A DNA stretch of 64,000 nucleotides. Source: an uncultured Methanosarcinales archaeon (GTDB lineage: Archaea > Nanobdellota > Nanobdellia > Woesearchaeales > JASKKU01). The stretch covers positions 1,737 to 65,736 of the forward strand of contig CAYUJZ010000002.1 in assembly GCA_964445165.1 (NCBI GenBank), written 5' to 3'. A program made the translations under genes and the position numbers. Below, in pieces: positions 920 through 59,507 of the stretch (position 1 is its first letter; every line of letters starts with the position of its first letter). The notes under the pieces are model-generated. The model had not been told where the DNA came from, searched no databases, and saw nothing but the letters and a program-made list of their open reading frames with translations.

Positions 920-1894
920 ATGGTTACTTCAGAGATGTCATATGCTATAATTGAAAACCTGCTTTGCAGCCCTAAGAAAAGGGAGATTGTTGAGCTAATG
1001 ACAGAGTATATTCCAGGTGCAAGGGTTTTCTCCATAATTAGCACGCAGGACCTTGCATCAAAGATGAAAGAGATAAAAAGCTATGACCCCGACATTATTC
1101 TTTCAGTTGGCGGGGATGGAACTGCACATAATGTGCTCAACCAGATGTTTCAGGAAGGGCTTGAGAAAAAGATTTTTGGGTTGGTTCCTGCTGGCTCTGG
1201 GAATGACTTTTCAATGTATGGATTAGGCATGAGTGTTCCTAGCACTAAATCAAAGAAAGCGATTTTTAGAAGCATAGATGATTATATTTATCCGGATACA
1301 AAGCAGGTTGATGTTGGCTTGTTTAAAGCGGAATATGAGAGGATTGTGCTTAACAGCGTTGGGTTTGGCTATACTGCTGAGATTGCTTTTAACTCCCAGG
1401 ATTACTATCACTTTGGAAGGCTGAGGTATCTTGCTGCCGGGCTTGCAAGCTTTATGAACGGGCTAGGCAACTATGCTTCTAGGCTTGAGGAAGTAAAAAT
1501 AAACGGCAAGGATAGGGATATGCCGGATAAAAACCTGATTACGCTCGTTATGAACTCCAAGGCTTCAGGAGGCGGTCTTATGTTTAACCCTATAGGAAGT
1601 GTTTGCGATGGGGTGTTTTCTTTTATAACCCTGAAAGAGGTTGGCAAAGGAGAGCTTGCAAAGCTGCTCTGGCAGGTTATTAAAAAAAAGCAGTTCTACA
1701 AAGACTGGAATGTGATGTATAACGGCGATGTAAGTAAGGTTAGCGTGGCTTCTGATACCTTGAGGCTGGTTGAGCTTGATGGGGAGATTCTTCCGGCAAC
1801 AAAAAGATTCAGTGTGGAAGTGCTCCCTGCCAAGGTTAGAATGATTACTAAAAAATCAGAAAAGCATTCTCAGGACAGATTGACCTTTGCCTGA
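920..1894 (+). CDS. diacylglycerol/lipid kinase catalytic-domain protein (DAGK_cat, YegS/BmrU-like)
   Basis: ORF-track protein with LSVGGDGTAHNVLN (the GGDG ATP-binding motif of DAGK_cat lipid kinases) and a glycine-rich GLVPAGSGNDF segment. 324 aa. Confidence 0.6.
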   Translation: MVTSEMSYAIIENLLCSPKKREIVELMTEYIPGARVFSIISTQDLASKMKEIKSYDPDIILSVGGDGTAHNVLNQMFQEGLEKKIFGLVPAGSGNDFSMYGLGMSVPSTKSKKAIFRSIDDYIYPDTKQVDVGLFKAEYERIVLNSVGFGYTAEIAFNSQDYYHFGRLRYLAAGLASFMNGLGNYASRLEEVKINGKDRDMPDKNLITLVMNSKASGGGLMFNPIGSVCDGVFSFITLKEVGKGELAKLLWQVIKKKQFYKDWNVMYNGDVSKVSVASDTLRLVELDGEILPATKRFSVEVLPAKVRMITKKSEKHSQDRLTFA

Positions 1895-2410
1895 TTCAAT
1901 CTCTTCTTTTGTTAAGCCTTTAAACTCATGCGGGAATACGAGCCACTTATCTGTTTCGTGGATGTAGTAATCAGGGGTTATGCTTGTCTCGTTGTTCTCA
2001 GGCTTGTAGTAAAGCATTGCTGTCTTGATTTCCTTTGGGCAGTTTTCTCCTGAATCTGCTTTTAGTTTTTCTATAAGTGCCTTGATACTTAGGCCTGTGT
2101 CAAAAACGTCATCTACGATAAGGATTTTATCATCTTTCTTTACTCTTTTTGTTATGTAGCTCAGCCCGAAGATGTCTACTTTTGCCTTGTGCTTGTCTTC
2201 ACGGTTGTAGCCTGAAGTGCGTATTGCAATGTGGTCTGTGGGTATGCCCCAGAAATCCAGGGCTTCCTGAACGATGCAGCCCGGGAATGCCCCACCTCTC
2301 CATAACCCAATCAGATAATCCGGCCTGAAGCCTGATTCTTTTATCTTTCTTGCCAGAAGGACTGAATCTGTATAGAAATCACCTAAACTAACGAAAAGCT
2401 TGCCTGCCAT
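1856..2410 (-). CDS. purine (hypoxanthine/guanine-type) phosphoribosyltransferase
   Basis: Type I PRTase PRPP-binding motif KILIVDDVFDTGLS. 184 aa, the typical size for archaeal HGPRT. Confidence 0.6.
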   Translation of the reverse strand: MAGKLFVSLGDFYTDSVLLARKIKESGFRPDYLIGLWRGGAFPGCIVQEALDFWGIPTDHIAIRTSGYNREDKHKAKVDIFGLSYITKRVKKDDKILIVDDVFDTGLSIKALIEKLKADSGENCPKEIKTAMLYYKPENNETSITPDYYIHETDKWLVFPHEFKGLTKEEIESGKGQSVLRMLF

Positions 2411-2447
2411 GTTTTATGTGGAAGGCTGCTGCTTTTATTTTTTTTGG

Positions 2448-2573
2448 TTTGAGATAAGCGCCAGGGGAGGGATTCGAACCCCCGCTCCCAAAGGGACAGG
2501 CTCTCAAGGCCTGCGCAATACCAGACTATGCGACCCTGGCTCAGGCAGAAGAGTCTAGCGAAGCTTTATAAGG
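2448..2573. repeat. 126-bp direct repeat, copy 1 (whole tRNA-Ser gene plus both flanks)
   Basis: Bases 2448-2573 (tttgagataagcgccagggg…gaagctttataagg) are identical to 4286-4411. Confidence 0.9.
2459..2540 (-). tRNA. tRNA-Ser (anticodon UGA), copy 1
   Basis: Reverse complement folds as a tRNA. Acceptor stem GCCAGGG/CCCTGGC is 7 bp. T-loop is TTCGAAT. Anticodon stem CAGGC/GCCTG with loop CTTGAGA gives anticodon TGA. A 13-nt variable arm (TCCCTTTGGGAGC) marks a class II tRNA. A TATA-like TTATAAAG sits about 25 nt upstream on the minus strand. Confidence 0.75.
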
Positions 2574-2591
2574 AATATTAAAAACAAAAAG

Positions 2592-4262
2592 TTAATCATT
2601 ACACCTACTTGAGTTAATAAGGAATAAATATGGCAAATCGGTATCCTGAAATAATTCAGTACAATTCATAAAATTTTTATAGAGAGAAATCCTTTCAAGA
2701 CTACTATAAATTGCTGTTATATTTCTCTTCAGAATGTATTGATCTAACGAATGATTATAAATATTTAATGCTGCTTGATGATTTACCACACCATCAAGAT
2801 TAACAACATTGAAAGATGAGAAAAAAGACAATCTCCCTGAATCAAAAGAACCAATTATTAAACTGTCATCAAACCTTAATTCAAGCTCTTTTAACTTTTC
2901 AAAGAAATCGGATTCTTCTTTATTGATTAGTATTAGATAGGAAGTCAGAAAACCTGAAATTACAATTAAAAAACATAAAATAAACCTCGAAGAAGAACTA
3001 AAGGATAATATTTGTCTTCTAGATACAAGAATCAAAGAGATTAGAATCAAAAAAGAGGGCGTAAGAATGTACCATATTTGAAAATGGGATATATAAAAAA
3101 TATAAAAAAAGGCCATTGCAAAGCCCAATAAAGCAAAAAACCAACAATTTCGAAAATCGTAACTAGTTGCTGGCTTAAATAACTTAACTAAAAGAATAAC
3201 ACAAAAAAGGAAGATCATAATTGATATGGAAAAATCAGTAAAGTTACTTCCAGCAAAACGAATTGGATCAAAATAAAAGCCTGGAAGCAGAAAAAGAGAT
3301 AAGAAGCAACAAAAAAACATTAAAAGATTCCCAATGTTTTTTTTATCTAAAAAAGTCTTCCTGGAAAAAGAAGGAAAGTTAATAAAAATTAAAGGAAATA
3401 ACAAAATCGAACCAAAAATGCTTAAGAACTTAAGTGGCCATACTGCTAAATTTGTCATTTTAGCCAAGTTTTGATGATTGTATGTTTCTCTATAAGAAAG
3501 AACCTTGCCTGATTCTTGCATAAATGAACCGAAATTCAAGTATGAGTACACAAACCAAGGGCTAATTAATATTAAAAAAAACAAAAAAGATAGCATAAAT
3601 TTTTTAATTTGATCTTTTGAAAGAACAATCCTTCTATTCTTATATAAATAAAAAAGGAAACATAAAAAGATGGGTATAATTGTATCACTTCTTGAGAGAA
3701 AACTCAATGCACCAAAAACACCAAGCAGAATAAAAAAGTATAATTTTTTATTTTCTGAATTTAACAGCTTTACAAAAAGATACAAAAACAAAGAAAAGAA
3801 GAATAATGCAAGAGGGGTTTCTACTCCTTGTTTAGAAATAAAAAAAACAAGAGGACTGGAAACCCATATTAAAAGGAACAATAAAGAAATAAAGTTGTTT
3901 CGTATTGTATTTTTTATAATTAAGTATCCAATAACTCCAGAACCTATGATTAAACAATGCATAAGTAAATGAGAAAGGATTTGAATTGCATTTTCCGATA
4001 AACCTGAAAAATTATAAATGAAAATCAAATACAAAAGGTACAGAGGATGGAAACCATTTGTTGTTGAGAAGCCATCACTGGTAATGAAGCCAAATTTTTC
4101 ATAATTTCTTGCCAGAACAAGATAATAATAAAAATCGTCAGAAATAAAACTTTCTCTTGAAGAAGGTTCAAAAAAAAAGAGAAAAAAACCTGAAAAAGAA
4201 AAGTAAAAAATAATTGATATCAAAGCGATATAAAATAGACACTTTTTTTCTTTTTTATTCAA
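2592..4262 (-). CDS. polytopic membrane protein, GT-C-fold glycosyltransferase-like (PMT/ArnT/YfhO-like), on a low-GC island
   Basis: 556 aa with more than 12 predicted TM helices. An N-terminal short loop is followed by a long hydrophobic core and a C-terminal soluble domain (…VVNLDGVVNHQAAL…). Composition is dominated by F/L/I/K/N/S/Y. Local GC is about 25-27% (hand count of 60-nt lines) against about 47% in the flanks. Confidence 0.45.
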   Translation of the reverse strand: MNKKEKKCLFYIALISIIFYFSFSGFFLFFFEPSSRESFISDDFYYYLVLARNYEKFGFITSDGFSTTNGFHPLYLLYLIFIYNFSGLSENAIQILSHLLMHCLIIGSGVIGYLIIKNTIRNNFISLLFLLIWVSSPLVFFISKQGVETPLALFFFSLFLYLFVKLLNSENKKLYFFILLGVFGALSFLSRSDTIIPIFLCFLFYLYKNRRIVLSKDQIKKFMLSFLFFLILISPWFVYSYLNFGSFMQESGKVLSYRETYNHQNLAKMTNLAVWPLKFLSIFGSILLFPLIFINFPSFSRKTFLDKKNIGNLLMFFCCFLSLFLLPGFYFDPIRFAGSNFTDFSISIMIFLFCVILLVKLFKPATSYDFRNCWFFALLGFAMAFFYIFYISHFQIWYILTPSFLILISLILVSRRQILSFSSSSRFILCFLIVISGFLTSYLILINKEESDFFEKLKELELRFDDSLIIGSFDSGRLSFFSSFNVVNLDGVVNHQAALNIYNHSLDQYILKRNITAIYSSLERISLYKNFMNCTELFQDTDLPYLFLINSSRCND

Positions 4263-4285
4263 TATTTGTCCCTCTCTTTAAGCGT

Positions 4286-4411
4286 TTTGAGATAAGCGCC
4301 AGGGGAGGGATTCGAACCCCCGCTCCCAAAGGGACAGGCTCTCAAGGCCTGCGCAATACCAGACTATGCGACCCTGGCTCAGGCAGAAGAGTCTAGCGAA
4401 GCTTTATAAGG
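4286..4411. repeat. 126-bp direct repeat, copy 2
   Basis: Identical to 2448-2573. Its last 19 bp encode the C-terminus (…LIKLR) and TAG stop of the HAD gene at 4393-5001. Confidence 0.9.
4297..4378 (-). tRNA. tRNA-Ser (anticodon UGA), copy 2
   Basis: Sequence identical to copy 1, with the same upstream TATA-like element. Confidence 0.75.
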
Positions 4412-5001
4412 TTTTTTCTTTGGGCAAGGTAAACCTCTGAGAATTCTTTCATCAGGGGCTTGTCTCCCTTGCCATCGGTGTAGAGTATTATGTGCTTGCC
4501 CTGGAAGCCTCCAAGGTGCTGCCTTAGGCGCCTGAGCTTTTCTTTGCCATAGCAATTTTTGCCGTCAAGCCTGCCTGTAAACTTATTGTCTTTAAACTCG
4601 AGCTTTGTTGCGATGACCTCTTTTATGCCTAATGAATCTGCAAAGGGCTGCACCCAGTTTTCTATGGAAGCGGTTGCGATGATAACCCTGTTTTTCTTTT
4701 CAACATGGAAATTTATTTTTTCAAGTATTTTTTTGTTTAGGCGCTTTTGCATCCTGGCGTGGAACTTCCTGCACTTTTCATTGAAATAATCCAGGGTTGT
4801 ATTCCTGAAGAAGAAGCTAAGCAGGATCTCCTTTGCCCTAGAGTTTGTGATAAGCCCAAGCCTGTATGAGATAAAAACAGGAGAGAGAAGTGCAACACCG
4901 GATAAAAACTTAAAAGGCCCATAGTTAAATATAAGAAAAGCATACAGGGAATCCGTATTAATTATTGTCTCGTCAAAATCAAAGACCGCTATCTTTTCCA
5001 T
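4393..5001 (-). CDS. HAD-superfamily hydrolase (phosphoserine-phosphatase-like, HAD-IB)
   Basis: N-terminal HAD motif I VFDFDETII (DxDxT), a cap-domain segment, and C-terminal motifs GDGKGD…TDG. 202 aa. The 3' end lies inside repeat copy 2. Confidence 0.65.
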   Translation of the reverse strand: MEKIAVFDFDETIINTDSLYAFLIFNYGPFKFLSGVALLSPVFISYRLGLITNSRAKEILLSFFFRNTTLDYFNEKCRKFHARMQKRLNKKILEKINFHVEKKNRVIIATASIENWVQPFADSLGIKEVIATKLEFKDNKFTGRLDGKNCYGKEKLRRLRQHLGGFQGKHIILYTDGKGDKPLMKEFSEVYLAQRKNLIKLR

Positions 5002-5007: not shown

Positions 5008-6144
5008 TCAGTAAGGGTCCCATTCCTTGATTTCTTCATACTTAGGGAACTTGCCGTAGGGGTACTGCTTAAAAAGCTTTCCCCACTCGGTTTTGTTGAA
5101 CTGGGCTATCTTCTTTTTTCCTGTGGTTGGGTACCACAAGGAGTCGTGGTAAAAGCCTGATGCGAATATAAACATCTTGAACAAGGGTGAATGGAAAAGA
5201 AGGTTGTGGAGCCATTTTATGTTTGATGTGCCTTTCCTTATCCTCTGGTCCCACTTGATTACCAGGCTCTTTTTTGTCTGGAAGCCAAAGTTTAGCCTTT
5301 TGAACTCGCTTTCCGGCATTCCAAGGATTTTTATCCTGTTAAGGCCTGCGTTTCCCAGGCCTGCGTCATCTGCCAGCTTAAGGTACTTGATTCTCAGTGG
5401 GTCAAAGCCCATGATTTTTGCTGCAACTGCATCAATGGCAACCTGGTCGTCACCTGCAAGGATTATGTTTCCTATGTAGGGCTCCATTACCCTGGGGCCT
5501 GCGCCGTCCCCGCATACTGTGCCGTCCATAACCGCAAAGACACTGCTGTGGATTTCTTTCTGTATTGAGAGAAGGTCTACCAGGACTTCATGTATCTTTT
5601 TGTGGGCATGGTGCCTGTACTTTGGGATTAAGCCGCCGAAAGCGTTTTTCATAGCGCCTGTGGTTGTGGTGTGGCCGTGGGTTTTTACAGTAGGGAGGTG
5701 AACTACATTTGAGCCGAAGAACATTTTAGGCACCAGAATCTCGCCGAAAAGGTCTTTCATTGCGAGCATTTTTGACTTTGGCCTGTGGGTTACCCACTCG
5801 ACGTCAGTAAGGGGCTGGTACTTAACCCCGTACTTTTTTAGCATAGGGAGCCATTTGTTGTCGTAGGCGCCTTTCCAGGGGTGTGTGACAACAGTCTGGT
5901 TCTCAACGCCTACTATCTTTTCATAGCCGTCTTTTTTAAGTGTCCTGAGAAGGCCTTCGAGCTGCCAGGGCTGGGTTGAGCAGGCTGGGTAGTAGAGGCT
6001 CCAGGAAAGGTTGAGCTTTATAATGGTCTCTGCTGTCTTTTTTATGATTTTTTCGTATGCACAGAGATGCAGGAGCTTTTCGTAATCATCAAGAACTGTC
6101 TCTGGCGATGTCCTTAGTACCGCAACTTTGCTTTGCATTTTCAT
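5008..6144 (-). CDS. DUF362-like protein
   Basis: 378 aa with IIKLNLSW…P segments and MDGTVCGDGAGP, which is reminiscent of DUF362-family proteins. The match is from memory, not a search. Confidence 0.4.
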   Translation of the reverse strand: MKMQSKVAVLRTSPETVLDDYEKLLHLCAYEKIIKKTAETIIKLNLSWSLYYPACSTQPWQLEGLLRTLKKDGYEKIVGVENQTVVTHPWKGAYDNKWLPMLKKYGVKYQPLTDVEWVTHRPKSKMLAMKDLFGEILVPKMFFGSNVVHLPTVKTHGHTTTTGAMKNAFGGLIPKYRHHAHKKIHEVLVDLLSIQKEIHSSVFAVMDGTVCGDGAGPRVMEPYIGNIILAGDDQVAIDAVAAKIMGFDPLRIKYLKLADDAGLGNAGLNRIKILGMPESEFKRLNFGFQTKKSLVIKWDQRIRKGTSNIKWLHNLLFHSPLFKMFIFASGFYHDSLWYPTTGKKKIAQFNKTEWGKLFKQYPYGKFPKYEEIKEWDPY

Positions 6145-6185
6145 TCAGGATGGGGATGGCTGGCTCTTTTAAATGTTTTCAAAAG

Positions 6186-7055
6186 CTAGCCCAGGATAGC
6201 GAAGCCATTGGTGTAGTAGAATGCAAAGAGCATGTAAACAAACCAAAGGAACAGGGAAGAGAGAAGAACCTTGTCCCTCACCAGCAGGCGCTCTATAGAC
6301 TCAACATTGTGTTTTTTTAAGTTAAGGTAGAGGTATCTCAGGAGCGCAAGCACCACAAAAAAAAGCGAGTACATCACCATCTCTGAGTGCGCGCCCAGGA
6401 TGCAGTAGATTGCATAAAACACTATGCAGGAGGTTACTGACAAAACCAGCATCGCATCCAAGATGCCTTCAGTATATGACTCAAGGACTTTTCTTTTGTT
6501 TTTTATGTGAACCAGCTCTGACTTCCTCTTCCCTACTGCAAGCATCAGCGCCAGGAAGAATGTGGCGAAAACAATCCAGGGAGTAATCTTGATGTTGACA
6601 GGGATTCCTCCGGCGAGTATCCTTATCACGAAGAGAAACCCAACGAGAAACACATCAAATACCGGGATATGCTTCAGCCTGAAGCTGTAGAGCAGGTTTA
6701 TGCCAATGTAGGCGAAGATTATCAGGGATGCTGTAAAATGCAGCCTTGAGAGGACTGCCAGCATAAAGATTCCCAGCAGGCAGGCAAGTGCAAGCGCCTC
6801 AAGGGTGCTTACTTTTCCTGAGGCAATCGGCCTTTTTGACTTTATGGGGTGAAGCCTGTCTTTTTCTTTGTCTGCTATGTCATTAACTATGTAGACAATG
6901 CTGGAAGCAAAAGAAAAAGCCAGAAAAACCAGAAACACGCTTATAAACAGGGGTATGTTGGTGATGTTCTCAGAGAAGAAAAGAGGCGCAAAGATTACTG
7001 CGTTCTTGTAAAAATGCGAAACCCTGAGGCACTTTATGTAGCTTAAAACTTTCAT
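6186..7055 (-). CDS. UbiA-family prenyltransferase (DGGGP-synthase-like / polyprenyl-phosphate phosphoribosyltransferase-like)
   Basis: UbiA Asp-rich motif NDIADKEKDRLHPIKSKRPIASGKVS. 289 aa with 8-9 TM helices. Confidence 0.7.
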   Translation of the reverse strand: MKVLSYIKCLRVSHFYKNAVIFAPLFFSENITNIPLFISVFLVFLAFSFASSIVYIVNDIADKEKDRLHPIKSKRPIASGKVSTLEALALACLLGIFMLAVLSRLHFTASLIIFAYIGINLLYSFRLKHIPVFDVFLVGFLFVIRILAGGIPVNIKITPWIVFATFFLALMLAVGKRKSELVHIKNKRKVLESYTEGILDAMLVLSVTSCIVFYAIYCILGAHSEMVMYSLFFVVLALLRYLYLNLKKHNVESIERLLVRDKVLLSSLFLWFVYMLFAFYYTNGFAILG

Positions 7056-7428
7056 TAAGCAGTAGATAAAAGTGTGCTTTAAATGTTTTTCGCCGGGTTT
7101 TTGCTGAAAAAGAAGAGCTTAATTGACTTCAGCAAATTATTCAGAAAAAGAGGAATTATCCAGAAAAAAGCCTACTCCTTTAGCCACAATTTTCTGCTTA
7201 AATTCAGAGCTGTCAAACAGCTTTTTCTGCTCAGGCGTTAAATCCTGGCCACACTTTGCCTCATTTAAATATGTTGCGTTTATCAAACGCAACTTTTATA
7301 ACTGTTGGGAAAACGCTTAATTCCCTGAGTTCTAGCTGATTCCTGAAAAATAACAAAAATTTTAAATAACATCCCAAAACCTGACTCTTATCTGGATTCG
7401 TTCCGGGCTGCAGTTAGGGGGCTTAAAA

Positions 7429-10350
7429 ATGCGCGTACTTGATGAGATTGATGATGTAATTGAAGACAGAAAAGACAAGAAAACCAAGGTTCTGCTTACT
7501 ATTGTGCTTATTCTTATTCCTATGCTTCTGGCTATTTTCATAAGGGTGCAGCCTGCCTACCTGCCTATTACTGATGAATGGGCGAGAGACAGCATTTACA
7601 ATGGGATTGGCAACCAGATACAGCAGCAGGTTAATGCGCAGTACCCTCTCCTGCCTGAGCAACAGAAGCGAAGCATTGTGCAGGAGCAGCTTGACGAGTA
7701 TATTAGGCAAAATAGTGAGATGATTGAAAGGGAAATTCAGAGGTATTCCCTTGAGCTGAAGGAAAAGCTCAAAGAAGACGAGGGAAATATAACTTACCTT
7801 ACTGCGATTGACCCATACCATTACTTCAGGCTTACCAGGAACATAGTTGAGCTGGGGCATCCCGGAGACATGATGCTTGAAGATGGCAGAAACATTGACT
7901 ACCTTATGCTTGGCGGGGCGCCGATTGAGAGAAAGCCAACCTACCACAGAAGGTTTACAAACCTGCTTGAGCTGATCAATGCAAACACTTACAGGATGCT
8001 GCGCTTTCTCGGCTCTGATGTAACGCTTCTGCAGGTGGTGTTTTTTAGCTCTGTCTGGCTTTCTGCAGCCTGTGTGATTCCTGCTTTTTTCATCGGGAAA
8101 AGGCTTGCCGGAAACATTGGAGGGTTTTTTGCAGGGGCAGTTATTGCTATCCACCCTTTCTTTGTCTCCAGGACTATTGGCGGGTTTGCTGATACCGATG
8201 CTTTTAACATTCTGTTTCCACTGATTGCCGCTTGGATGCTTATTGAGGCTTTCAGGAGCAGAAACACCAGGAATACTGTAATATTCTCTGTGCTTACTGC
8301 CGTTACATTATGGATTCTCTCAACGGCGTGGACTCCTGGGCCAACGCTTATAGTGCTTCTGGGCGCGCTTGCTGCCAATGTGGCGCTTGCGCTGATTCTT
8401 TACAACACCGCAAGGTTCAAGGATAACAGGAAAGGCAAGGGCTATGCTTTTATGGCAGTGAATGCCGGGCTGATAGCGGTTATACTGCTTGCTCTTTACT
8501 TCATTGACACTAGCCTGCTTCCCTGGGGAGGCCTGTTCCAGGGGACTGTTTCAAATATTTTCTTAATTATATTCTTTTCAACAATATTTGCCGGGTTGAT
8601 TTATCTTGCATCTGAGCTGTTATCTTCGGGGCTGAAGAGAGATGTTTCTGAAAAGAAGCAGTTTTTTAGGAAGGAAGCAAAGATTACTTTGCTGATTCTG
8701 GGAGTCTTTTTTGTGTCTTATTTTCTGATGAGCTCATACAACTTAAGGTCAGGAGGCTTTAACTTTAGCAATATGATAGACAACATCGGAGCAACGATAG
8801 GGTTTGTCCAGATTAAGGATGTTGCGACTGGCACTATCTGGCCGAATGTTTACACGACTGTTGCTGAGCTAAAACAGGCAAGCTTCAGCCAGATTGTTGA
8901 TAACCTTGGGGGGCAGTTCCTCTTCTTTGTCTCTTTGATAGGAATTGGTATAGCTGTTTTTGCGAAAGGTAGGGGCAAAAACAATACTGCATTGTTCTCC
9001 CTGCTTCTTGCGATCTGGATGGCTTCAACTGTGTACGCTACATTCAAGGGAATCAGGTTTGTGCTTATGATCGTGCCGCCTTTTGCGATTGCGATCGGGG
9101 TTGCGATTGGGCTGGGCGGAAAATACTTAGCTGGCATGCTTGAAAAGAACTTCCAGATAAAAGCAAGCATCACCAAGCTGCTTCTTGTGGCTTTGTTTGT
9201 GTTTGTGCTGTTTTTCGGCACTGACTCTATGTACTCAAATGCCTACCAGCTTTCATCAAGGCAGTTCCCTATGATGAACGACGGATGGTTTGGGTCCTTA
9301 TCTGAAATCAATGAAAAGTCAGACGAGGATGCTATCATAACGTCCTGGTGGGATTTTGGGCACTGGTTTAAGGCAATAGCAAGAAGGCAGGTCACTTTTG
9401 ACGGTGCGAGCCAGAATACGCCGATGGCGCACTGGGCTGGAAGAATACTGCAGACTGACGATGAGACTGAAGCATTAGCGATACAAAGGATGCTTAACTG
9501 CGGCTCTAACGAGGCGTTTTATATCCTTGAGGAGAACCTCACGGACGCTGCTGCAATAAGGATTGTTAAGGACATTATTATGATGCCAAGGGAGGATGCA
9601 AGGCAGCACCTTCTTAATTATGTAAGCGAGGATGCTGCTGAACAGATTCTTCAGTATTCGCACTGCACTCCGCCTCAGTCTTTCTTTATCACATCTGAAG
9701 ACATGGTTGGGAAATCTGAGGTTTGGGGGCACTTCGGCACCTGGAACTTCACAAGGTCAACGATGTACAACAGGGTTAGGTTTTTGGGGGAGGCTGAAGC
9801 CCTGGAGATTTTAAAGGATTACTTTAACCTGAGCGATGAGCTTGCAAGGAGGTATTACTACCAGATAAGGGTTACTGACAATGCTGATGAGTGGGTTTCT
9901 CCCTGGCCTTCCTATATCGGGGCAGAGATCAGCTGCACGAAGAGAAATAATGAAACTATCCTGGAATGCACGAGAATGTTCTCGGCTACGCAGGGCGTAA
10001 AGGTGTTTATCAACCTTACCTCAATGGAGGCTTATGTGAGCCAGATGGAAAACGGGAGCAGGCCGCACTCTTTTGTTTACTATGATGATGAGGGGAACTC
10101 TTACATCAAAGAATATGAGTCGCCTTTGCTTGACCTGTCAGTAACCCTGAAAGAGCGTGCTGACGGAAGCTACCAGATTGTCATGGGCGACCCGCTGCTT
10201 AGAAACAGCATGTTCACGAGGCTGTTTTTCCTTGAGGGGCACGGAACGAATTACTTTAAAGAATTCAGCAACATAAGGGATGTTTTTGGGCAGAGGGTAA
10301 TTGTGTGGACTATTGACTGGGAGAGCTTTTTAGAGGATTTTGAGGGCTGA
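7429..10350 (+). CDS. aglB: archaeal oligosaccharyltransferase AglB (STT3 family)
   Basis: 973 aa. A 13-TM N-terminal domain is followed by the diagnostic WWDFGHW (WWDYG) motif at SWWDFGHWFKA and a large C-terminal periplasmic domain. Confidence 0.85.
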   Translation: MRVLDEIDDVIEDRKDKKTKVLLTIVLILIPMLLAIFIRVQPAYLPITDEWARDSIYNGIGNQIQQQVNAQYPLLPEQQKRSIVQEQLDEYIRQNSEMIEREIQRYSLELKEKLKEDEGNITYLTAIDPYHYFRLTRNIVELGHPGDMMLEDGRNIDYLMLGGAPIERKPTYHRRFTNLLELINANTYRMLRFLGSDVTLLQVVFFSSVWLSAACVIPAFFIGKRLAGNIGGFFAGAVIAIHPFFVSRTIGGFADTDAFNILFPLIAAWMLIEAFRSRNTRNTVIFSVLTAVTLWILSTAWTPGPTLIVLLGALAANVALALILYNTARFKDNRKGKGYAFMAVNAGLIAVILLALYFIDTSLLPWGGLFQGTVSNIFLIIFFSTIFAGLIYLASELLSSGLKRDVSEKKQFFRKEAKITLLILGVFFVSYFLMSSYNLRSGGFNFSNMIDNIGATIGFVQIKDVATGTIWPNVYTTVAELKQASFSQIVDNLGGQFLFFVSLIGIGIAVFAKGRGKNNTALFSLLLAIWMASTVYATFKGIRFVLMIVPPFAIAIGVAIGLGGKYLAGMLEKNFQIKASITKLLLVALFVFVLFFGTDSMYSNAYQLSSRQFPMMNDGWFGSLSEINEKSDEDAIITSWWDFGHWFKAIARRQVTFDGASQNTPMAHWAGRILQTDDETEALAIQRMLNCGSNEAFYILEENLTDAAAIRIVKDIIMMPREDARQHLLNYVSEDAAEQILQYSHCTPPQSFFITSEDMVGKSEVWGHFGTWNFTRSTMYNRVRFLGEAEALEILKDYFNLSDELARRYYYQIRVTDNADEWVSPWPSYIGAEISCTKRNNETILECTRMFSATQGVKVFINLTSMEAYVSQMENGSRPHSFVYYDDEGNSYIKEYESPLLDLSVTLKERADGSYQIVMGDPLLRNSMFTRLFFLEGHGTNYFKEFSNIRDVFGQRVIVWTIDWESFLEDFEG

Positions 10351-10387
10351 TTTTTAGGGAAACGAGAGCTGTTAAAGGGAAATACAA

Positions 10388-11578
10388 ATGAGCCAGAAAG
10401 AAAACTGGATATTTGATAGAGGCCTGTTTAGCAACAAGAAGGTTTTGGCAGCTCTACTTTTTTGTGTTGCTTTTGTTCCTACTTTTATTCAGGTTGTCCT
10501 GAAAATGGTAATCCTCAGGGGGCCAAAGTTTGCTATTACACATCTGTTATTTAACTATGAGATAGAGTTTGTTAAAAGGGGGCTAATAGGAGAATTGCTG
10601 AGGCTTGTTTTTTCCGAAATAACTTTTAAGATTGCTATGGCTTTCTTCTTTATAATACTAGCAGTCGCGCTGGCTGTGCTGGTGCTTGTCTTTTTTAAGC
10701 CCTATAAGCTCTATAAAAAGCCTGGGCTTTTTCTTTTCTTCCTTCTTGCAATAACGCATTTTGCAACTGCAAACCAGTTTATTTATGACATCGGAAGGTT
10801 TGACCAGTTTCTTCTAATTATAACCTTTGTTTGCATGATTATGATATGCCGGCTCAAAACGCTGAGCTATTTCCTGCTGCCTTTGCTGATTGTTTTGGGG
10901 CTTCTTATACATGAGGCTTTCCTTTTTATGTTTATACCCCTGATTTTTGCCTATTACATCTACAAGAGAAGAATGGTAAAAAGAGAGCTTGCTTTCTTAT
11001 TCCTGCTCGGGGGCTTAGCTATTTGCTCTACATACATTATTGGAACAAGAGGAATGGTTACGACAATGGGTTATGAAGAGTATTATAGCAACCTCAAAGA
11101 AGGCGAGAAAGCGCTCGTGTCTGAGGGTGCCTCGAATATTCCTTTCAGGGGGCTAAAGGACAATTTAGAATACAGCTTTGCAAGGAACAGGGACAAGAAT
11201 TTCTTTCTGGACCACATGATATTCTTAATCGCGCTTAGCCCGACTATTTTCCTTTTTGGGAAAATCTTCAAAGCACTAGTAAGAAACAGAAAAGAGCTGC
11301 TTCTTGCTTTTTCTGCATTAACTCCTCTTTTGCTCTACTTGCTGGGGCATGACTTTGCAAGGTGGTGGGGGCTAGCTATAACAAATGCCTTTATAGTTAT
11401 ATCGCTTCTTGCGCTTAAAAAGAGCAGCTCTGAGAAACTGGAGAAGGCTTGTATTGAAAACAAGCACTTAATCATTAACGCAATAATTATCTCATTAGTC
11501 TTGGGCCCAATCGGGATTTACAGTTTCTTCCCTAGGATTGTTGAAGGAATCAAGTTCCTGGTGATGTTTGTTTTGTGA
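10388..11578 (+). CDS. uncharacterised polytopic membrane protein (paralog A; candidate Wzy-like polymerase or ligase)
   Basis: 396 aa, multi-TM. Shares long identical stretches with 13121-14323, for example YE(I/L)EFVKRGLIGE, KPGLFLFFL.AITHFATANQFI.DIGRFDQ and GLLIHE.F.FMFIPLI.AYYIYK. Confidence 0.5.
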   Translation: MSQKENWIFDRGLFSNKKVLAALLFCVAFVPTFIQVVLKMVILRGPKFAITHLLFNYEIEFVKRGLIGELLRLVFSEITFKIAMAFFFIILAVALAVLVLVFFKPYKLYKKPGLFLFFLLAITHFATANQFIYDIGRFDQFLLIITFVCMIMICRLKTLSYFLLPLLIVLGLLIHEAFLFMFIPLIFAYYIYKRRMVKRELAFLFLLGGLAICSTYIIGTRGMVTTMGYEEYYSNLKEGEKALVSEGASNIPFRGLKDNLEYSFARNRDKNFFLDHMIFLIALSPTIFLFGKIFKALVRNRKELLLAFSALTPLLLYLLGHDFARWWGLAITNAFIVISLLALKKSSSEKLEKACIENKHLIINAIIISLVLGPIGIYSFFPRIVEGIKFLVMFVL

Positions 11579-11602
11579 TTAAAAGAAAATGTTTTTATAT
11601 GA

Positions 11603-13114
11603 TTGCCTGATAGTTTTTCCTGGAAAATGAGCGAGAGCCTTAAGCAGACTGTCAGGAAGAATGTCTTTTTTCTTTACCTGTTCTCTTTTCTTGTTATTCC
11701 TGTGAGCTTTGCAATAAGGATTGTTCTTGCGAGGAATCTTTCCGGGGCTGATTTCGGGCTTGTTTACTCTCTGCTTAGCTTCTTTGGGCTGATTAGCATA
11801 TTTAATGACTTTGGGCTTACTGAAACTTTGAACTATCATGGTGTGAGGTTCTACGAGAAAAAGAGGCTTGGCAGGCTTAAGGGCGCTGTGCGGATTGCTT
11901 TTCTTTCCCAGACGATTACTGCTGTTGCGATTGGGCTGGTGCTTTTCTTTTTTGCGCCCTGGCTTGCTGAGAATTATTTTCATTACCCTATGGCTGGGGC
12001 GGCTTTGCAGGCCGGGCTGCTTTATTTCCTGTTCTTCAACATGTCCAGGGCTTTTGTGACTGCGGTAAATGTTACCCAAAATGTGTTTTACAACAAGATG
12101 TTTGAGGTGTTTAACCTTGCTGTGGTCGCAGCCGGGGTGGTGGCTTTGTGGCTTACCGGCAGGCTGAGCGCTGAGGGAACGATGCTGTTCTGGGGGATGG
12201 GAATTTTTATTGTCTTTATTCTTTCATTCTTTGTTTCAAGGAGCAAGATTAGGGAGATTTCGCGTGTGAAGGCTGAGGCTGACTTTGGGCTGTTTAAGAA
12301 GCTGTTGAAGTATTCTTTGTTTGTTGCGCTTGGGACAGGGGCGATGTATGTGCTGAGCTATTCTGACCTGCAGGTTATAACTTACTTTTCCACGCTTGAG
12401 AATGCGGGGCTTTACAGCGCTGCGAGCTCTATCTCTAAGGTGCTGGCCGGGCTTGCACTGCCTATCGCTGCGCTGCTTTTCCCGCTCGGGTCCAAGCTTT
12501 TTTCAGAGGGCAGGAAAAAGGAGATTAAGGCTATTCTTGAGCTGACTTACTCATTGGGCTTTTTTGTGGCTGTGCCGTTTTTTCTGCTTGCGAGTGTTTT
12601 TTCTAAGGAGGTTCTTCTGGTAATCTTCGGGCAGGGGTTTGTTGCCTCGCAGGGGGCTTTGCTGGTGCTGCTTGCTGCGAAAGTGTTTTATGTGTTTTTC
12701 TCTATTAACTTTGCTTTCAGCGCTGCTTTCGGAAGGGTTAAGGAAAGAACCAAGTACCTTTATTTTGCTGCCTTGCTGAATATTGTGCTGAGCATCCTGC
12801 TTGTGAGGGTGCTTGGGATTGTCGGGGTTGCTGTGGGGACTCTGGTGACTACCTTGTTTCTCTTTGGGTCTACTTACTTTATTGTGAATAAAGAGGTGCC
12901 TTTCTCGATTGACTTTTTTTATATCCTGAAGACTGTGTTTCTTTCCCTGGGGGTGCTTGTGCTTGCTTTTGGCGTGAAGGCAGTGATGCCTGGGCATTAT
13001 GTGGTTAAGGCTGTTGTTATTGGAGGGCTGGCTTGTGCTGTTTACCTGCTTGGGGGGATTAAGCTTAAGCTTGTGGATGTCAAGAAGATTCTTGCAATGG
13101 TTAGGGAGAGGTGA
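11603..13114 (+). CDS. Wzx-like oligosaccharide flippase (MOP/polysaccharide biosynthesis protein family)
   Basis: 503 aa with about 14 TM helices and the organisation typical of PST/Wzx flippases. It sits in the glycan locus next to aglB. Confidence 0.6.
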   Translation: MPDSFSWKMSESLKQTVRKNVFFLYLFSFLVIPVSFAIRIVLARNLSGADFGLVYSLLSFFGLISIFNDFGLTETLNYHGVRFYEKKRLGRLKGAVRIAFLSQTITAVAIGLVLFFFAPWLAENYFHYPMAGAALQAGLLYFLFFNMSRAFVTAVNVTQNVFYNKMFEVFNLAVVAAGVVALWLTGRLSAEGTMLFWGMGIFIVFILSFFVSRSKIREISRVKAEADFGLFKKLLKYSLFVALGTGAMYVLSYSDLQVITYFSTLENAGLYSAASSISKVLAGLALPIAALLFPLGSKLFSEGRKKEIKAILELTYSLGFFVAVPFFLLASVFSKEVLLVIFGQGFVASQGALLVLLAAKVFYVFFSINFAFSAAFGRVKERTKYLYFAALLNIVLSILLVRVLGIVGVAVGTLVTTLFLFGSTYFIVNKEVPFSIDFFYILKTVFLSLGVLVLAFGVKAVMPGHYVVKAVVIGGLACAVYLLGGIKLKLVDVKKILAMVRER

Positions 13115-13120
13115 GGGCTT

Positions 13121-14323
13121 TTGACTGCAGATGAGCATATCCATAATAAGGATTGGCTATACTCATGGATTATTGAAAACAAGAAACTATCGCTGGCACT
13201 GTTTGTGCTAGCTGCATTAATCCCTACTCTGGTTATGACCATCCTGAAGCTTGTGATTTTAAGGTGGAAAAGCATTGGGACTGGCCTTTTTGTAAACTAT
13301 GAGCTTGAATTTGTTAAGAGAGGGTTAATCGGAGAGGCTTTCAGGCACATTTTTTCAGAGATTACATTTAGCATCACTGTGGTTTTCTCTTTTATTATTA
13401 TGGCTGGGGCGATAATTGTGCTTGCTGTCTTGTTTTACAAGCCATATAGGCTGAATAATAAGCCTGGGCTATTCTTATTCTTTCTTTTTGCTATAACGCA
13501 TTTTGCAACTGCAAACCAGTTTATATTTGACATTGGAAGGTTTGACCAGGCTCTTCTGGTAATTGCTTTTGTGTGCTTTATTTTGATTAACAAGAGAATG
13601 AAAATAGGCTACCTTTTGATTCCGTGCCTGCTTGTTTTGGGGTTGCTGATACATGAAGGCTTCTTTTTTATGTTTATTCCCCTGATAATTGCTTACTACA
13701 TTTATAAGAACAAGATCTGCTGCTGGAAGCTTGCATTCTTGCTTTTTCTGGGCATACTGGCTGTTGGCTCTACTTATATTATCGGAACTGAGGGCCAGCT
13801 AACCAAGACTTCAATTGAGGACCACCAACGTTATATTAATGAAAAAAACAGCGAGATAAGCATTCCTTATGAACCCGAGGGAATTCATACAAGAGGTGTT
13901 AAGGAAAATATAGGCTATACTGTTGAGAGGCTGGCTAACCGGTGGACTGTTTTTGGGCTTCTGGTTTTTTTTCCTGCAGTTTTGCCAACGATTATGATTT
14001 TTAAAAAAATATTCAGGGCGATTATAAAGAGCAAAAAAGAGCGTCTTCTGATGCTGGCCTGTTTAACTCCTTTGCTGCTTTACCCCTTGGGGATTGACGG
14101 CCCGAGGTGGATTGGGCTGGCTATAACTAACCTTTTTATTGTCACTTCGCTGCTTGCCTTGAACAAGAGCCACTCAAATAAGCTTAACAGCATTATGGTT
14201 GAGATAAGGCACTTGGTTATAGGGGCAATAATTATTTCTGTAATCCTTGGCCCTATCGGGGTGGTAACCTTTTTTACCAGAATAACTGAGCCTATAAGAT
14301 TTTTGGTTGGCTACAGACCCTGA
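13121..14323 (+). CDS. uncharacterised polytopic membrane protein (paralog B of 10388-11578)
   Basis: 400 aa. By-eye alignment to paralog A gives about 55-60% identity across the full length. Confidence 0.5.
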   Translation: MTADEHIHNKDWLYSWIIENKKLSLALFVLAALIPTLVMTILKLVILRWKSIGTGLFVNYELEFVKRGLIGEAFRHIFSEITFSITVVFSFIIMAGAIIVLAVLFYKPYRLNNKPGLFLFFLFAITHFATANQFIFDIGRFDQALLVIAFVCFILINKRMKIGYLLIPCLLVLGLLIHEGFFFMFIPLIIAYYIYKNKICCWKLAFLLFLGILAVGSTYIIGTEGQLTKTSIEDHQRYINEKNSEISIPYEPEGIHTRGVKENIGYTVERLANRWTVFGLLVFFPAVLPTIMIFKKIFRAIIKSKKERLLMLACLTPLLLYPLGIDGPRWIGLAITNLFIVTSLLALNKSHSNKLNSIMVEIRHLVIGAIIISVILGPIGVVTFFTRITEPIRFLVGYRP

Positions 14324-14902
14324 TTAAGGCGGGTTGTGCCCACAAACAAAGTCGTTATGCACTTTTATTCTTTTTATGCTTGCCAGGAAGACTCCTGCGA
14401 ACAGGAGCATTATTGCGATTGTGTTTCTCCAGGCGATTACTCCTGGCTTGATGTCTGGGTCTGTTGTGTAGCGCCAGTCTATTGAGGCCTGGGGGGTGTA
14501 TTTTTCCAGCCTGAAGTGGAACAGGGGAACAAGGCTTGAGTATGTTGAAACCTCGAGCTCTGCGGTTACGAAGTCTTCTGAGAAGGGGTATAGGAGCGGG
14601 ATGCCTCCGTAGCTTAGGTCTAAAAGCAAATGTGAGAATAGGAAAAAGGATATTACGAACAGGCATCTTGCGTATTTTGAGTCTTTTAGCCTGAATATAA
14701 CTGCTATCAGAAGGATGATTATGGGTATGAAGATGCTGTGTGAGAAGGTCCTGTGGACTGCTGTGCCGAGAAAAACATCGAAATCCGGCAGAATTGCAAA
14801 AACCGAGAGCACTAATGAGGAGAGGAGTATCTTGTTGTACTTAAGCTGGTCGTAGAGTATGAGTGCAATAAGCGGAAAGAGCCAGTGGCTTAGCAGGTCC
14901 AT
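14324..14902 (-). CDS. membrane-bound metal-dependent hydrolase (YdjM/DUF457 family)
   Basis: 192 aa, about 5 TM, with the HRTFSHS motif (the HRxxTHS signature of the DUF457/YdjM family). Confidence 0.5.
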   Translation of the reverse strand: MDLLSHWLFPLIALILYDQLKYNKILLSSLVLSVFAILPDFDVFLGTAVHRTFSHSIFIPIIILLIAVIFRLKDSKYARCLFVISFFLFSHLLLDLSYGGIPLLYPFSEDFVTAELEVSTYSSLVPLFHFRLEKYTPQASIDWRYTTDPDIKPGVIAWRNTIAIMLLFAGVFLASIKRIKVHNDFVCGHNPP

Positions 14903-14965
14903 AATGCCGGGAAGCTGGAATTATTTAAAAAAGTTTATAAAAAAGCTCACGGAGCTTAACCTGAT

Positions 14966-16078
14966 ATGTACTTTTACCAGCAGAACGAAAAGACGAAAGC
15001 GATTGAGGCTGACATTAATGAGAAGATTAAGAGCTTCGTCAGCTATATTGAGGGCACGCCCTGGCTGAAGAAGAGCACAATTAGCTTTGGCCTGGTAGGG
15101 CCTTGTGCAAGAGGGCAGGGGTTTTACCATAATGAAGATGCAAGAAGCGACTTTGACTTTTACCTTCTCTCAAATGAATTAAACCTGGAAAAAGAAAAAA
15201 GGGCAAAAAAAGCTTTTTTTGAGATTTTTAAGAAACAGAAGCCTAGCCTGCAGGTGGAATCAAAAAGACTGCAAGTAAAGCATGATGAGGATGTTTCCCT
15301 GCACTATGTTTCTCCTACTATTTTCAAGAGGCCCGACCTGATGTTTTTTGAGTACGTTGAATCTGGAAAGGCCTTTTATGGAAAAAAGATTAATAAAATC
15401 TCAATTGAGAGAATTCCTAAATTCGAAGGGTTCAGGAACATTCTGTTCAGGTCTTGCGTGTTTTTCTCTCTGTTTGATGTAAATAATGGAAAGCTAAAGC
15501 TAAAAGAGAATGTAGCAAAAGAGAGGTTTTTCTACGGATACTCAAAGGTAATTTTCAGCATCGGGGAGGTTTTCCTGCTTCTTGAAAGGAGCTATGTTGC
15601 TGATAACTTCAGAAGGAATGAGATAATCAAAGAGAGCAAGCATGCTAAAAAGCTCAAGAACTTTATTGAAGAGCATGAAAAGATGAATAAGCTCAGGTAC
15701 AGCAGCCATACTGTTAGCTTAGAGAAAGAATTCAAAAGAAAGGATGAATATATCAGCTATGCGTTTAAGGTTCTTGAGCAGGGGTATGACATTCTGGTTA
15801 GCGAATTATTCAAAGGGAATATTAATGAGCTGAAAAAAACATCAGCCAGGGGAGTAAGAAAAATCTGGAACAGGCTGTTCTTTATGAAAAGGTATTTTTG
15901 CATGACAAAAAAACTCAGAATCCCAAAGGGAGAGCCTTTTGTTGAGCTGATTCTGATGGCTTATGAATTTATAAGAAAAGCCAACAGAGACAAGGGCATA
16001 AGAAAAGAAGAGCTGGAGAACATCTTAATTTACTGGAAGATTGCCCCCTGGGTTTACTTTAAGGAACAAGACTTCTAA
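14966..16078 (+). CDS. hypothetical protein with a possible nucleotidyltransferase-fold N-terminus
   Basis: 370 aa. FGLVGPCARGQG…SDFDFYLL resembles the G[SG]…D.D signature of minimal nucleotidyltransferases. The resemblance is weak. Confidence 0.3.
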   Translation: MYFYQQNEKTKAIEADINEKIKSFVSYIEGTPWLKKSTISFGLVGPCARGQGFYHNEDARSDFDFYLLSNELNLEKEKRAKKAFFEIFKKQKPSLQVESKRLQVKHDEDVSLHYVSPTIFKRPDLMFFEYVESGKAFYGKKINKISIERIPKFEGFRNILFRSCVFFSLFDVNNGKLKLKENVAKERFFYGYSKVIFSIGEVFLLLERSYVADNFRRNEIIKESKHAKKLKNFIEEHEKMNKLRYSSHTVSLEKEFKRKDEYISYAFKVLEQGYDILVSELFKGNINELKKTSARGVRKIWNRLFFMKRYFCMTKKLRIPKGEPFVELILMAYEFIRKANRDKGIRKEELENILIYWKIAPWVYFKEQDF

Positions 16079-16103
16079 AAACATAAGGCTTTTTTGAAAT
16101 TGG

Positions 16104-17312
16104 TCAGAAAACAGGCTTGCCATCAAGATTTTTGGGGATCTCGCTTTCAAGCCCCAAGGCTTTTAGCATTGAGGGGAATATGTCTACTACATTCATCTCT
16201 TTGTGCTTTGTCCTGAAGGCGTTTGTTATAAAGAAGCCGTAAGAGCATGGTGATTCCGGGGCGTATCCATGCATTCCCCTGATGCCTGAGCGGATTGGGG
16301 CAAAGTAGTCTGGAAAGATTCTTGTGTTTGTCTTAACCAGAAATATGTCTTCTCCCCATTTCCTGTCTTCAAACCTAATGTGGTATTTTTCACGCTGCTT
16401 GTCATCAAGGTATGTTAGCTCAGGGACTTTCCTAAAGGCTTCGACAACTTTTTCCCTAACGCCTTTTCTATGGTACCAAAACCTTACCATGGTTGCATCA
16501 AAGAATGCAACGAAGTCTCTTGGCTGCTTAAACTCCAGGGATTTGAAAACCGGCCTTAAGTCAACAAAGTTTTTGACTTCGCACATGCCGTGGTCTGAGA
16601 ATGCAAACAAATTAACCTTTCCATGCTCTTTAAGCGCTTTGGTGTACAGCTCTTTTACTTTCTTATCACACTGCTTGAGGTAATCAATTACTTTCTCTGA
16701 TGAAGGGCCGTATGAGTGGCCGTATCCGTCTCCAAAGTACATATAAAAGAAATCTGCCTGGCTCTTTGTCAGCTTCATATCGCTTACTTCATTTACATTT
16801 TTCTCTCCTATAAAAAGGCAGCCGAGGTCTGCCTGCCCGTGCCAGGAGATTTTGTTTTTTTCCAGGACAGAGAACAGGCTCTCCTTGTATTCTGGCTCCT
16901 GGGATTTGCACGAAAAGAACCTGGACATTTTTGGTGGGAGCGCAGGTGGGTACTCAATAATCCTTTTGTACCATTTTGGTGAGGATTGCTTAAGCCTTTT
17001 GAATTTGTAATAGGGAATTTTAACTGCACCTATAAAGTATTTCCTGAGCTTTTCAAACGGAATCAGCTTTAGGTACCAGACAGGCTTGAAATAATTGGAT
17101 TTTGGGTCGTAGTAGTATATTGTGAATTTTTTATGCCTCTCCTGGTAAAGGCCTGTCCAGATGGTTGGGTGAATGCCTACCGAGAAGCCTAAAAGGGTTT
17201 TTAGCGGCAGTAGCTGCTGTTTCTCTGAAAGCTCGTATAAGAAGGGGGTGATTTCTGGCGTAATTTGGTCATGCCTTACTGCATCCATGAGAAAAATAAG
17301 TGTTTTTTGCAT
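16104..17312 (-). CDS. alkaline-phosphatase-superfamily type I phosphodiesterase / nucleotide pyrophosphatase-like enzyme
   Basis: 402 aa. N-terminal LIFLMDAVRHD (the metal-binding Asp region of NPP/AlkP-fold enzymes) and C-terminal GMHGYAPE (the GxHGY motif). Confidence 0.55.
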   Translation of the reverse strand: MQKTLIFLMDAVRHDQITPEITPFLYELSEKQQLLPLKTLLGFSVGIHPTIWTGLYQERHKKFTIYYYDPKSNYFKPVWYLKLIPFEKLRKYFIGAVKIPYYKFKRLKQSSPKWYKRIIEYPPALPPKMSRFFSCKSQEPEYKESLFSVLEKNKISWHGQADLGCLFIGEKNVNEVSDMKLTKSQADFFYMYFGDGYGHSYGPSSEKVIDYLKQCDKKVKELYTKALKEHGKVNLFAFSDHGMCEVKNFVDLRPVFKSLEFKQPRDFVAFFDATMVRFWYHRKGVREKVVEAFRKVPELTYLDDKQREKYHIRFEDRKWGEDIFLVKTNTRIFPDYFAPIRSGIRGMHGYAPESPCSYGFFITNAFRTKHKEMNVVDIFPSMLKALGLESEIPKNLDGKPVF

Positions 17313-17313
17313 A

Positions 17314-19685: not shown

Positions 19686-19692
19686 TTTCTGT

Positions 19693-52452: not shown

Positions 52453-52474
52453 AAAAAGAGTGAAGGCAGAAAAC

Positions 52475-59496: not shown

Positions 59497-59507
59497 AATA
59501 AAGCAAG

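Follow-up and report, generated by a model that had tools for sequence, protein, structure and literature searches.

How a foreign gene can be inserted at a tRNA locus and leave a complete tRNA gene on either side of it is the question raised by positions 2448 to 4411 of the stretch of DNA considered here, i.e., 64,000 nucleotides of contig CAYUJZ010000002.1 (hereafter, the window), belonging to a member of the Woesearchaeota. The window is chromosomal, as it encodes SerRS, ProRS, a class-I (Trp/Tyr-type) tRNA synthetase, FtsZ, MCM, EF-1alpha, and SufBCD. In it, a 126-bp block of host sequence containing the tRNA-Ser(UGA) gene is present twice around a 1712-bp insert, poor in GC, whose only gene (referred to as the cargo gene) is predicted to encode a membrane glycosyltransferase. 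The analysis revealed that alleles with and without the insert coexist in the population and that the empty state is the ancestral one; as for the origin of this arrangement, insertion with long target duplication is the explanation that we tentatively favor.

A tRNA-Ser(UGA) module duplicated around a foreign gene

A repeat search disclosed a direct repeat of 126 nt, with 100% identity, at positions 2448-2573 (copy 1) and 4286-4411 (copy 2), with a spacing of 1838 nt. This pair is the sole perfect long repeat within the 64 kb, its chance expectation being about 1e-67, and no further degenerate copies of it were found in the window at up to three mismatches. Copy 1 is proximal to a gene encoding a phosphoribosyltransferase (PRT) of the purine PRT-like type (1856-2410, minus strand, PF00156), and copy 2 to a gene encoding a HAD-IB family phosphatase (4393-5001, minus strand, PF12710 with E 1e-33, TIGR01490); these two genes represent the conserved flanks of the locus. 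On the minus strand, each copy is composed of a 33-nt upstream region with a TATA box, the whole tRNA-Ser(UGA) gene, and 11 nt of 3' flank. The two tRNA genes, located at 2458-2540 and 4296-4378, were both identified as tRNA-Ser(tga) by ARAGORN and matched Rfam RF00005 with 55.8 bits each, and their sequence folds into a cloverleaf with a long variable arm. The TATA-like element, TTATAAAG, occupies positions 2564-2571 in copy 1 and 4402-4409 in copy 2 (minus strand), and its 3' end lies 23 nt before the 5' end of the mature tRNA; as read from the sequence and the alignment, it is a putative promoter element. The bases located 5' of this element, at the position of the B recognition element (BRE), are unequal, being AAAAAACC (the native upstream context) at copy 2 and AATATTCC (derived from the island) at copy 1. 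Even though the bases at the BRE position differ, the TATA box and the gene are identical, so that it is plausible that both tRNA-Ser copies are expressed. Lastly, since the HAD open reading frame (ORF) extends over 4393-5001, its last five codons and the stop fall in 19 bp of copy 2 (4393-4411), and copy 1 includes a noncoding duplicate of the same 19 bp. The perfect repeat, the complete minus-strand tRNA gene with its TATA-like element and 11-nt flank in each copy, and the end of the HAD gene in copy 2 had all been described in the original prediction, which was made by reading the sequence, and were recovered here.

The DNA comprised between the repeats (2574-4285, 1712 bp) has a GC content of 27.2%, against 43.0% for the window, and its flanks range from 40 to 50%; the foreign character that had been attributed to it therefore stands, the value of 47% proposed for the flanks being slightly high. 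The deviation in GC and codon usage that might be expected from such an origin is evident. The GC content of the cargo gene is 0.272, compared to 0.439 +/- 0.032 in 49 other ORFs (z = -5.2), and that of its third codon positions (GC3) is 0.234, compared to 0.487 +/- 0.051 in the same 49 ORFs (z = -4.95). Moreover, AGC accounts for 31% of the serine codons of the host, whereas the cargo gene turns to AGT (19%), with AGC at 3%. The idea that the additional tRNA-Ser(UGA) gene meets a codon demand of the cargo gene is unsupported, the share of TCA among serine codons being 0.26 in the cargo and 0.25 in the host.

The insert contains one long ORF (2592-4262, minus strand), encoding 556 amino acids from a TTG start codon (543 from an alternative TTG at position 4223); a 100-aa ORF on the opposite strand looks spurious. 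The insert is thus a nearly bare gene, preceded by a 23-nt leader (4263-4285, minus strand) in which a Shine-Dalgarno-like motif (GAGAGGG) but no convincing promoter could be recognized, and followed, after the stop codon, by an 18-nt T-rich tail (CTTTTTGTTTTTAATATT, 2574-2591, minus strand), which might act as a terminator, judging from its likeness to the archaeal oligo-T terminators. The cargo gene lies directly downstream of tRNA copy 2, by read-through from which it is probably co-transcribed. No terminal inverted repeats were found, the longest inverted match between the ends of the island being 7 nt, and transposon-like ends were rejected on this basis. No integrase or transposase domain was detected either in the island, in agreement with the single gene without integrase that had been predicted, or in the 46 ORFs located between 920 and 61220 that were scanned with Pfam.

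Occupied and empty alleles of the locus

A set of alleles was assembled from metagenome contigs of several samples, retrieved by exact-protein look-up of the flanking genes and aligned to the window. In four contigs from four samples (L002, 128 kb in length, L004, L005, and L006), the site is empty, a single 126-bp repeat standing directly between the HAD and PRT flanks, with an identity to the window of 99.9-100%; the single repeat is identical (126/126) to both copies of the window. The full two-copy arrangement is present in L003 (75 kb), which differs from the window by six single-nucleotide polymorphisms (SNPs) in 15 kb and by none in 2448-4411, whereas two contigs from two further samples (L008 and L009) contain the junction between HAD, repeat, and island. 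The insertion at the tRNA-Ser locus that the original prediction had proposed is thus directly visible in the comparison of these alleles.

Since the data are metagenomic, and the short contigs L007, L008, and L009 break at the repeat, a mis-join or a collapsed or expanded repeat might be suspected. However, the contig names carry the label k141, that is, the final assembly k-mer, which is longer than the 126-bp repeat, and the k-mers spanning the junctions are therefore backed by reads. Moreover, the full arrangement was obtained again in L003, whose six SNPs make it an independent assembly, and the junction of HAD, repeat, and island was assembled in the two further samples mentioned above. 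An assembly artefact, a possibility that had been raised together with the original prediction, is very unlikely, verging on negligible, and the locus has a two-allele structure in the population.

The closest genome record is that of Candidatus Woesearchaeota archaeon SpSt-1178 (L010), whose DUF362 protein is 96% identical to that of the window and whose nucleotide identity across the locus is about 90%. This sister species shows the same synteny, with a single tRNA-Ser gene between HAD and PRT and no insert. Its empty site, together with the synonymous-site composition of the cargo gene, indicates that the empty state is ancestral and that the island was gained. The opposite possibility, that is, an old arrangement of two tRNA genes plus the transferase gene, with the empty sites originating from deletions and the low GC content reflecting the amino acid composition of a membrane protein, would agree with the ease of deletion between 126-bp repeats, with the match between the function of the cargo and the neighboring glycan genes, and with the location of a distant family member between UbiA-pathway genes and a HAD gene. 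However, it has little chance of being correct: the site is empty in a sister species at about 90% identity, the repeats are perfect, and among 1.8 billion representative proteins, none homologous to the cargo is more than about 35% identical to it. Furthermore, the low GC3 and the switch from AGC to AGT are synonymous-site signals, of a kind that amino acid composition is unable to generate, and AglB, a membrane protein of the same genome, is encoded at 46% GC.

The sister species is also informative on the origin of the repeat. Its promoter and tRNA sequences are identical to those of the window, whereas its 11-nt trailer differs at about four positions. Both window copies carry the trailer of the window's own lineage, as well as the last 16 coding nucleotides and the stop of the host HAD gene; for this reason, the repeat is host-derived and only the 1712 bp are foreign. 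The two copies are indistinguishable from each other, and the suggestion that copy 1 plus the island represents the acquired segment is not supported.

The island is located on two slightly different SNP backgrounds, each of which shares flanking variants with empty-site contigs, and L003 carries, in addition, four private SNPs. The two backgrounds might hint at repeated loss or exchange of the island. A further contig, L001 (1813 bp, ERZ27252306 k141_76424), contains the island only, corresponding to window positions 4292 to 2480, and was recovered from the sample that also yielded the empty-site contig L002. Both of its ends fall within the repeat, of which it includes 7 + 94 = 101 of the 126 bases, and they do not overlap; as the contig does not close, it was dropped as a proof of a circular form, and it could correspond either to an occupied allele present in a minority of cells or to a free circle. 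The latter would be relevant for a Campbell-type integration, in which an 1838-bp circle (the island and one repeat) deriving from another cell of the same population would have been inserted into the resident tRNA locus by homologous recombination; the element would thus spread as a circle devoid of a recombinase, the duplication having arisen earlier in some other way. The 100% identity of the repeat to the host sequence, as homologous recombination requires, the occurrence of L001 in the sample that yielded the 128-kb empty-site contig, and the presence of the island on two SNP backgrounds are all compatible with it, and in E. coli, recombinase-less islands with long direct repeats excise and integrate by host functions (PMC3191183, PMC5426353). 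Nevertheless, this scenario appears improbable, given that the unclosed L001 may equally derive from a minor occupied allele that became separated in the assembly graph, that the origin of the first repeat-bearing copy is left unexplained, and that allelic exchange through the long flanking homology explains the spread of the island equally well. A scan of JGI metagenomes for the tRNA yielded a contig of the sister species as its sole match, with no additional alleles or circle junctions.

A proposed insertion with long target duplication and its alternatives

The explanation that we favor, at a confidence somewhat short of even, is that a recombinase-free insertion with long target duplication occurred at the tRNA-Ser(UGA) locus and that recombination between the repeats would later remove the insert. 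It is preferred because the repeat is host-derived and longer than any att site needs. According to this explanation, 1712 bp of foreign, AT-rich DNA, consisting of the GT-C glycosyltransferase gene with its short leader and T-rich tail, would have been captured recently at the chromosomal tRNA-Ser(UGA) gene of this Woesearchaeota lineage. The capture would have been illegitimate, with no need for a dedicated recombinase, and would have doubled 126 bp of host sequence (the TATA box, the whole tRNA gene, and the 11-nt trailer) around the insert. This might have happened either through breaks staggered by about 126 nt and then filled in, or through unequal end-joining of sister chromosomes, in which the foreign fragment would have served as filler. 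After the insertion, the HAD gene would have kept its stop codon, the PRT gene its native upstream context, and a functional tRNA gene would stand on each side of the insert; nothing would have been broken, because what was doubled comprises a whole tRNA gene together with its promoter. In addition, the T-rich tail and the second promoter would keep the expression of the downstream tRNA and of PRT as it was before. Finally, homologous recombination between the perfect 126-bp repeats, 1.8 kb apart, would precisely delete the island, restoring the empty site and releasing an 1838-bp circle, and such recombination is proposed as the reason why occupied and empty alleles coexist on near-identical backgrounds.

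Insertions of this kind have been described in bacteria (Nobusato et al. 2000, Gene 259:99; Furuta, Abe and Kobayashi 2010, PMC2853133). They concern inserts shorter than 20 kb without mobility genes, some of them low in GC, bounded by direct repeats of 45-423 bp whose counterpart in the genome lacking the insert is a single target copy (PMC2853133). The present locus has the same constitution, i.e., a small insert without transposase or integrase, lower in GC than the host, as is often the case for such inserts, and long direct repeats (126 bp) corresponding to the single copy of the empty genome, which, as it can happen in that class, overlap the 3' end of a neighboring gene. The insert is absent from a close relative with collinear flanks, the repeats exceed 30 bp, the insert is below 20 kb, and no mobility gene is present. 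The published cases are all bacterial and carry restriction-modification (RM) genes as cargo, and no archaeal case came from that screen (PMC2853133); here, instead, a DPANN archaeon hosts the insert, which carries a glycosyltransferase gene, and the target is a complete tRNA gene with its promoter. RM genes are lacking in the insert, but an RM cargo belongs to the design of the published screen and is not a mechanistic requirement. The original prediction regarded the duplication of a whole tRNA gene without an integrase as unusual; precedents for both aspects exist, namely, the 45-423-bp target duplications without mobility genes and the whole-tRNA att sites cited in the same paper (PMC2853133).

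A number of considerations weigh against long target duplication. The mechanism itself is invisible in the sequence. The published class has been defined on bacterial RM cargo, and its mechanism is itself unproven (PMC2853133). The haplotype argument makes use of consensus metagenome contigs, which are possible strain chimeras. A site-specific origin fits the location equally well, since tyrosine integrases classically target tRNA genes, and an integrase could be encoded outside the 64-kb window or on a helper element. Moreover, in the empty allele, both ends of the repeat read AAA/CC on the minus strand, the slash marking the boundary (GAAAAAA/CCTTAT and CTCAAA/CCAAAA, corresponding to window positions 2446-2449 and 4409-4413). 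This coincidence could be due to chance in an A-rich context, or it could be the sign of a preferred cleavage site, hinting at a sequence-specific nuclease or recombinase.

Such a recombinase would be expected if the island were the remnant, or a nonautonomous form, of a tRNA-targeting element (a provirus, an integrative plasmid, or an element similar to the CIMEs, that is, the cis-mobilizable elements of streptococci), whose repeats would represent attL and attR and whose integrase would have been deleted or would act in trans. The direct repeats are indeed similar to attL and attR in that they overlap a tRNA gene and are reduced to a single copy in the empty contigs, and the island shares with the tRNA-targeted tyrosine-integrase elements the exact location at a tRNA gene, the tRNA sequence within the repeats, the foreign composition, and a precise empty site, both in the population and in relatives. 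The AAA/CC common to both boundaries may be added to this list, as well as the fact that GT-C serotype-converting transferases lie beside att sites in the gtr prophage modules. Furthermore, certain phages and integrative plasmids are known in which the identity block spans the entire tRNA gene (cited in PMC2853133). On the other hand, the block found here consists of the whole gene with its promoter and trailer, and not just of the 3' part of the gene; upstream of the tRNA, it continues for 33 nt and reaches the coding sequence of HAD, an extension superfluous for an att site, and downstream it includes 11 nt with the private trailer bases of the host lineage. The cargo is a single gene with almost no noncoding DNA, and the 23 and 18 nt that flank it leave no room for arm sites. 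No integrase is encoded in the island or in the scanned ORFs between 920 and 61220, and an exact search of IMG/VR, an incomplete collection for this habitat, with the tRNA and with its 31-nt 3' half, aimed at an attP carried by a virus, gave 0 matches. The protein encoded by the island does not point to a virus or a plasmid either. A search of such collections, which had been proposed with the original prediction, yielded no match to the cargo among 50,697 phage records (tblastn) or in PHROGs; the sole matches in plasmid records were from Rhodovulum (24% identical), and the relatives found in IMG/VR were merely 28-38% identical, so that a viral or plasmid origin of the cargo has no support. 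On the whole, we consider the tRNA-integrating element, which is the main rival, as the less likely of the two, and long target duplication is retained as the preferred explanation.

Islands bounded by direct repeats and devoid of recombination genes are also represented by the E. coli microcin H47 island and by the CIMEs, which move by host or helper functions. The H47 island is 13 kb long and recombinase-less, with imperfect repeats (PMC3191183, PMC5426353), whereas the repeats of the present island are perfect and its mobility is putative. A further term of comparison is offered by the additive flexible genomic islands located at tRNA hotspots, including the glycotype islands (Lopez-Perez and Rodriguez-Valera, PMC4898812). 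With these, the present locus has in common a strain-variable cassette beside a tRNA gene, a repeat of tRNA sequence, a surface-glycan cargo, and variation within a near-clonal population; those islands, however, are bacterial, and their repeats cover part of the tRNA gene, whereas here the whole tRNA gene and its promoter surround a single cassette. At a hotspot, different cassettes are found at the same site; among the nine contigs and the sister species, the site is either empty or occupied by the single GT-C cassette, and no other cassette was observed. The locus is also a tRNA-linked flexible island, which probably affects surface glycans. A bolder hypothesis, to which we would give a slim chance, is that the 126-bp promoter-tRNA-trailer module is a portable handle, through which host recombination shuttles single-gene cassettes, as 1.8-kb circles, into tRNA-Ser loci population-wide. 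If this were true, a recombinase-free cassette shuttle would diversify the surface glycans of a DPANN archaeon, with the essential tRNA protecting the site and supplying a promoter to the cargo.

The cargo glycosyltransferase and the surface-glycan cluster

The cargo protein itself has no Pfam match at E <= 0.01, and its NCBIfam match reaches merely 17 bits. It belongs to a large, uncharacterized family, with 1148 representatives at E <= 1e-10, among which even the best match shares only about 31% identity with it. We call it a GT-C-fold membrane glycosyltransferase, predicted to depend on polyprenyl-phosphate sugars, because of four lines of evidence. In the first place, PF13231 (PMT_2) is matched by 32 of its 56 aligned relatives. 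Secondly, the profile of the family matches the mycobacterial arabinosyltransferase AftB, with E 6e-4. Thirdly, the AlphaFold2 model of the protein (pLDDT 84, pTM 0.88) has STT3, AglB, PglB, ALG12, DPY19, ArnT, and AftA as top Foldseek matches, and all 15 matches at E <= 1e-3 are GT-C enzymes, with a TM-score of about 0.5. Lastly, a D42-D43 pair in the first extracytoplasmic loop is at least 90% conserved in the 56 family members. Hence, the cargo shares with the GT-C enzymes (PMT_2/ArnT/AftB-like, with the STT3 fold) the predicted fold, the multi-pass topology, the first-loop DD motif, and the C-terminal soluble domain, although, taken alone, it remains below every Pfam threshold and its family, unlike those enzymes, is uncharacterized.

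A distant homologue of the cargo, P0011, is located in a region (L086 1801-7303 / L087 2701-8202) where the order of the genes is UbiA, GtrA, FAD_binding_4, adh_short, GT-C, and HAD, resembling the mycobacterial decaprenyl-phospho-arabinose pathway plus its transferase. By analogy, the cargo could use a lipid-linked pentose provided by the neighboring UbiA and HAD genes, which we consider as a lead. A general link of the cargo family to UbiA/HAD pentose-lipid pathways was discarded, such an association being seen in one of six homologue contexts only.

The cargo gene lies at the edge of a surface-glycan cluster of about 20 kb (5008-21977), delimited through Pfam and NCBIfam scans, whose genes encode a DUF362 protein, a UbiA/decaprenyl-phosphate phosphoribosyltransferase-like protein, AglB/STT3, a Wzx-type flippase, a TagF-like glycerophosphotransferase, GT4 transferases, and unknown membrane proteins. 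Two of the latter (10388-11578 and 13121-14323; 396 and 400 aa, with no Pfam or NCBIfam match) are paralogous, sharing a stretch of 300-425 nt at about 74% nucleotide identity, and flank the flippase gene; the possibility that the cargo is a paralogue of them was rejected (hhalign probability <1%).

A second dip in GC content is present inside the cluster, at 17314-19272, where the TagF-like gene (34.5% GC) and a short GT1-family gene (200 aa, possibly truncated, 33% GC) depart from the average of 44%, so that a further acquisition may be surmised for this segment. The flippase gene shares 96.8% identity with that of SpSt-1178 (L010 1-1520 versus window 11593-13114), whereas the neighboring genes are 82-90% identical, which suggests a recent exchange of this segment between the two species. 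A second indel of the cluster is represented by an additional 389-aa ORF located between the AglB and UbiA genes of SpSt-1178 (L010 5759-6928) and absent in the window. The DUF362 protein (5008-6144) shares 66-74% identity with proteins of Methanobacterium, Methanosarcinales, and other euryarchaeal metagenome-assembled genomes, and 51-56% with bacterial ones; for such distant lineages, the identity is unusually high, suggesting a wide horizontal spread. Two other regions of the window are worth reporting. At 51433-53479, two adjacent, slightly overlapping ORFs (339 and 358 aa, with no Pfam match) share 49 nt at 82% identity (51961-52009 and 52985-53033) and are probably tandem paralogues. At 57742-61220, a NuoF-like flavoprotein gene adjoins that of a [FeFe]-hydrogenase large subunit, a pair that suggests the existence of a bifurcating-type hydrogenase module in this Woesearchaeota genome.

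As the island adds a transferase to a surface-glycan cluster, its presence or absence probably gives rise to strain-level variation in cell-surface glycans, of the kind that matters for virus recognition and for the attachment of episymbionts to their hosts. Gene gain in DPANN archaea is poorly understood because their genomes are tiny and contain few recognizable mobile elements. In this respect, the locus offers a single-gene acquisition that is still polymorphic in nature; its boundaries are defined to the base, its ancestral state is known, and no recombinase is apparent. The case is clean, yet it introduces no new principle; it is best read as an example of a known, though seldom studied, kind of gene gain, for which it may be the first case in archaea. 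If long target duplication is indeed its origin, this route of gene gain would extend to archaea and to cargo other than RM genes, and the case would illustrate how an essential tRNA locus can receive an insertion without harm.

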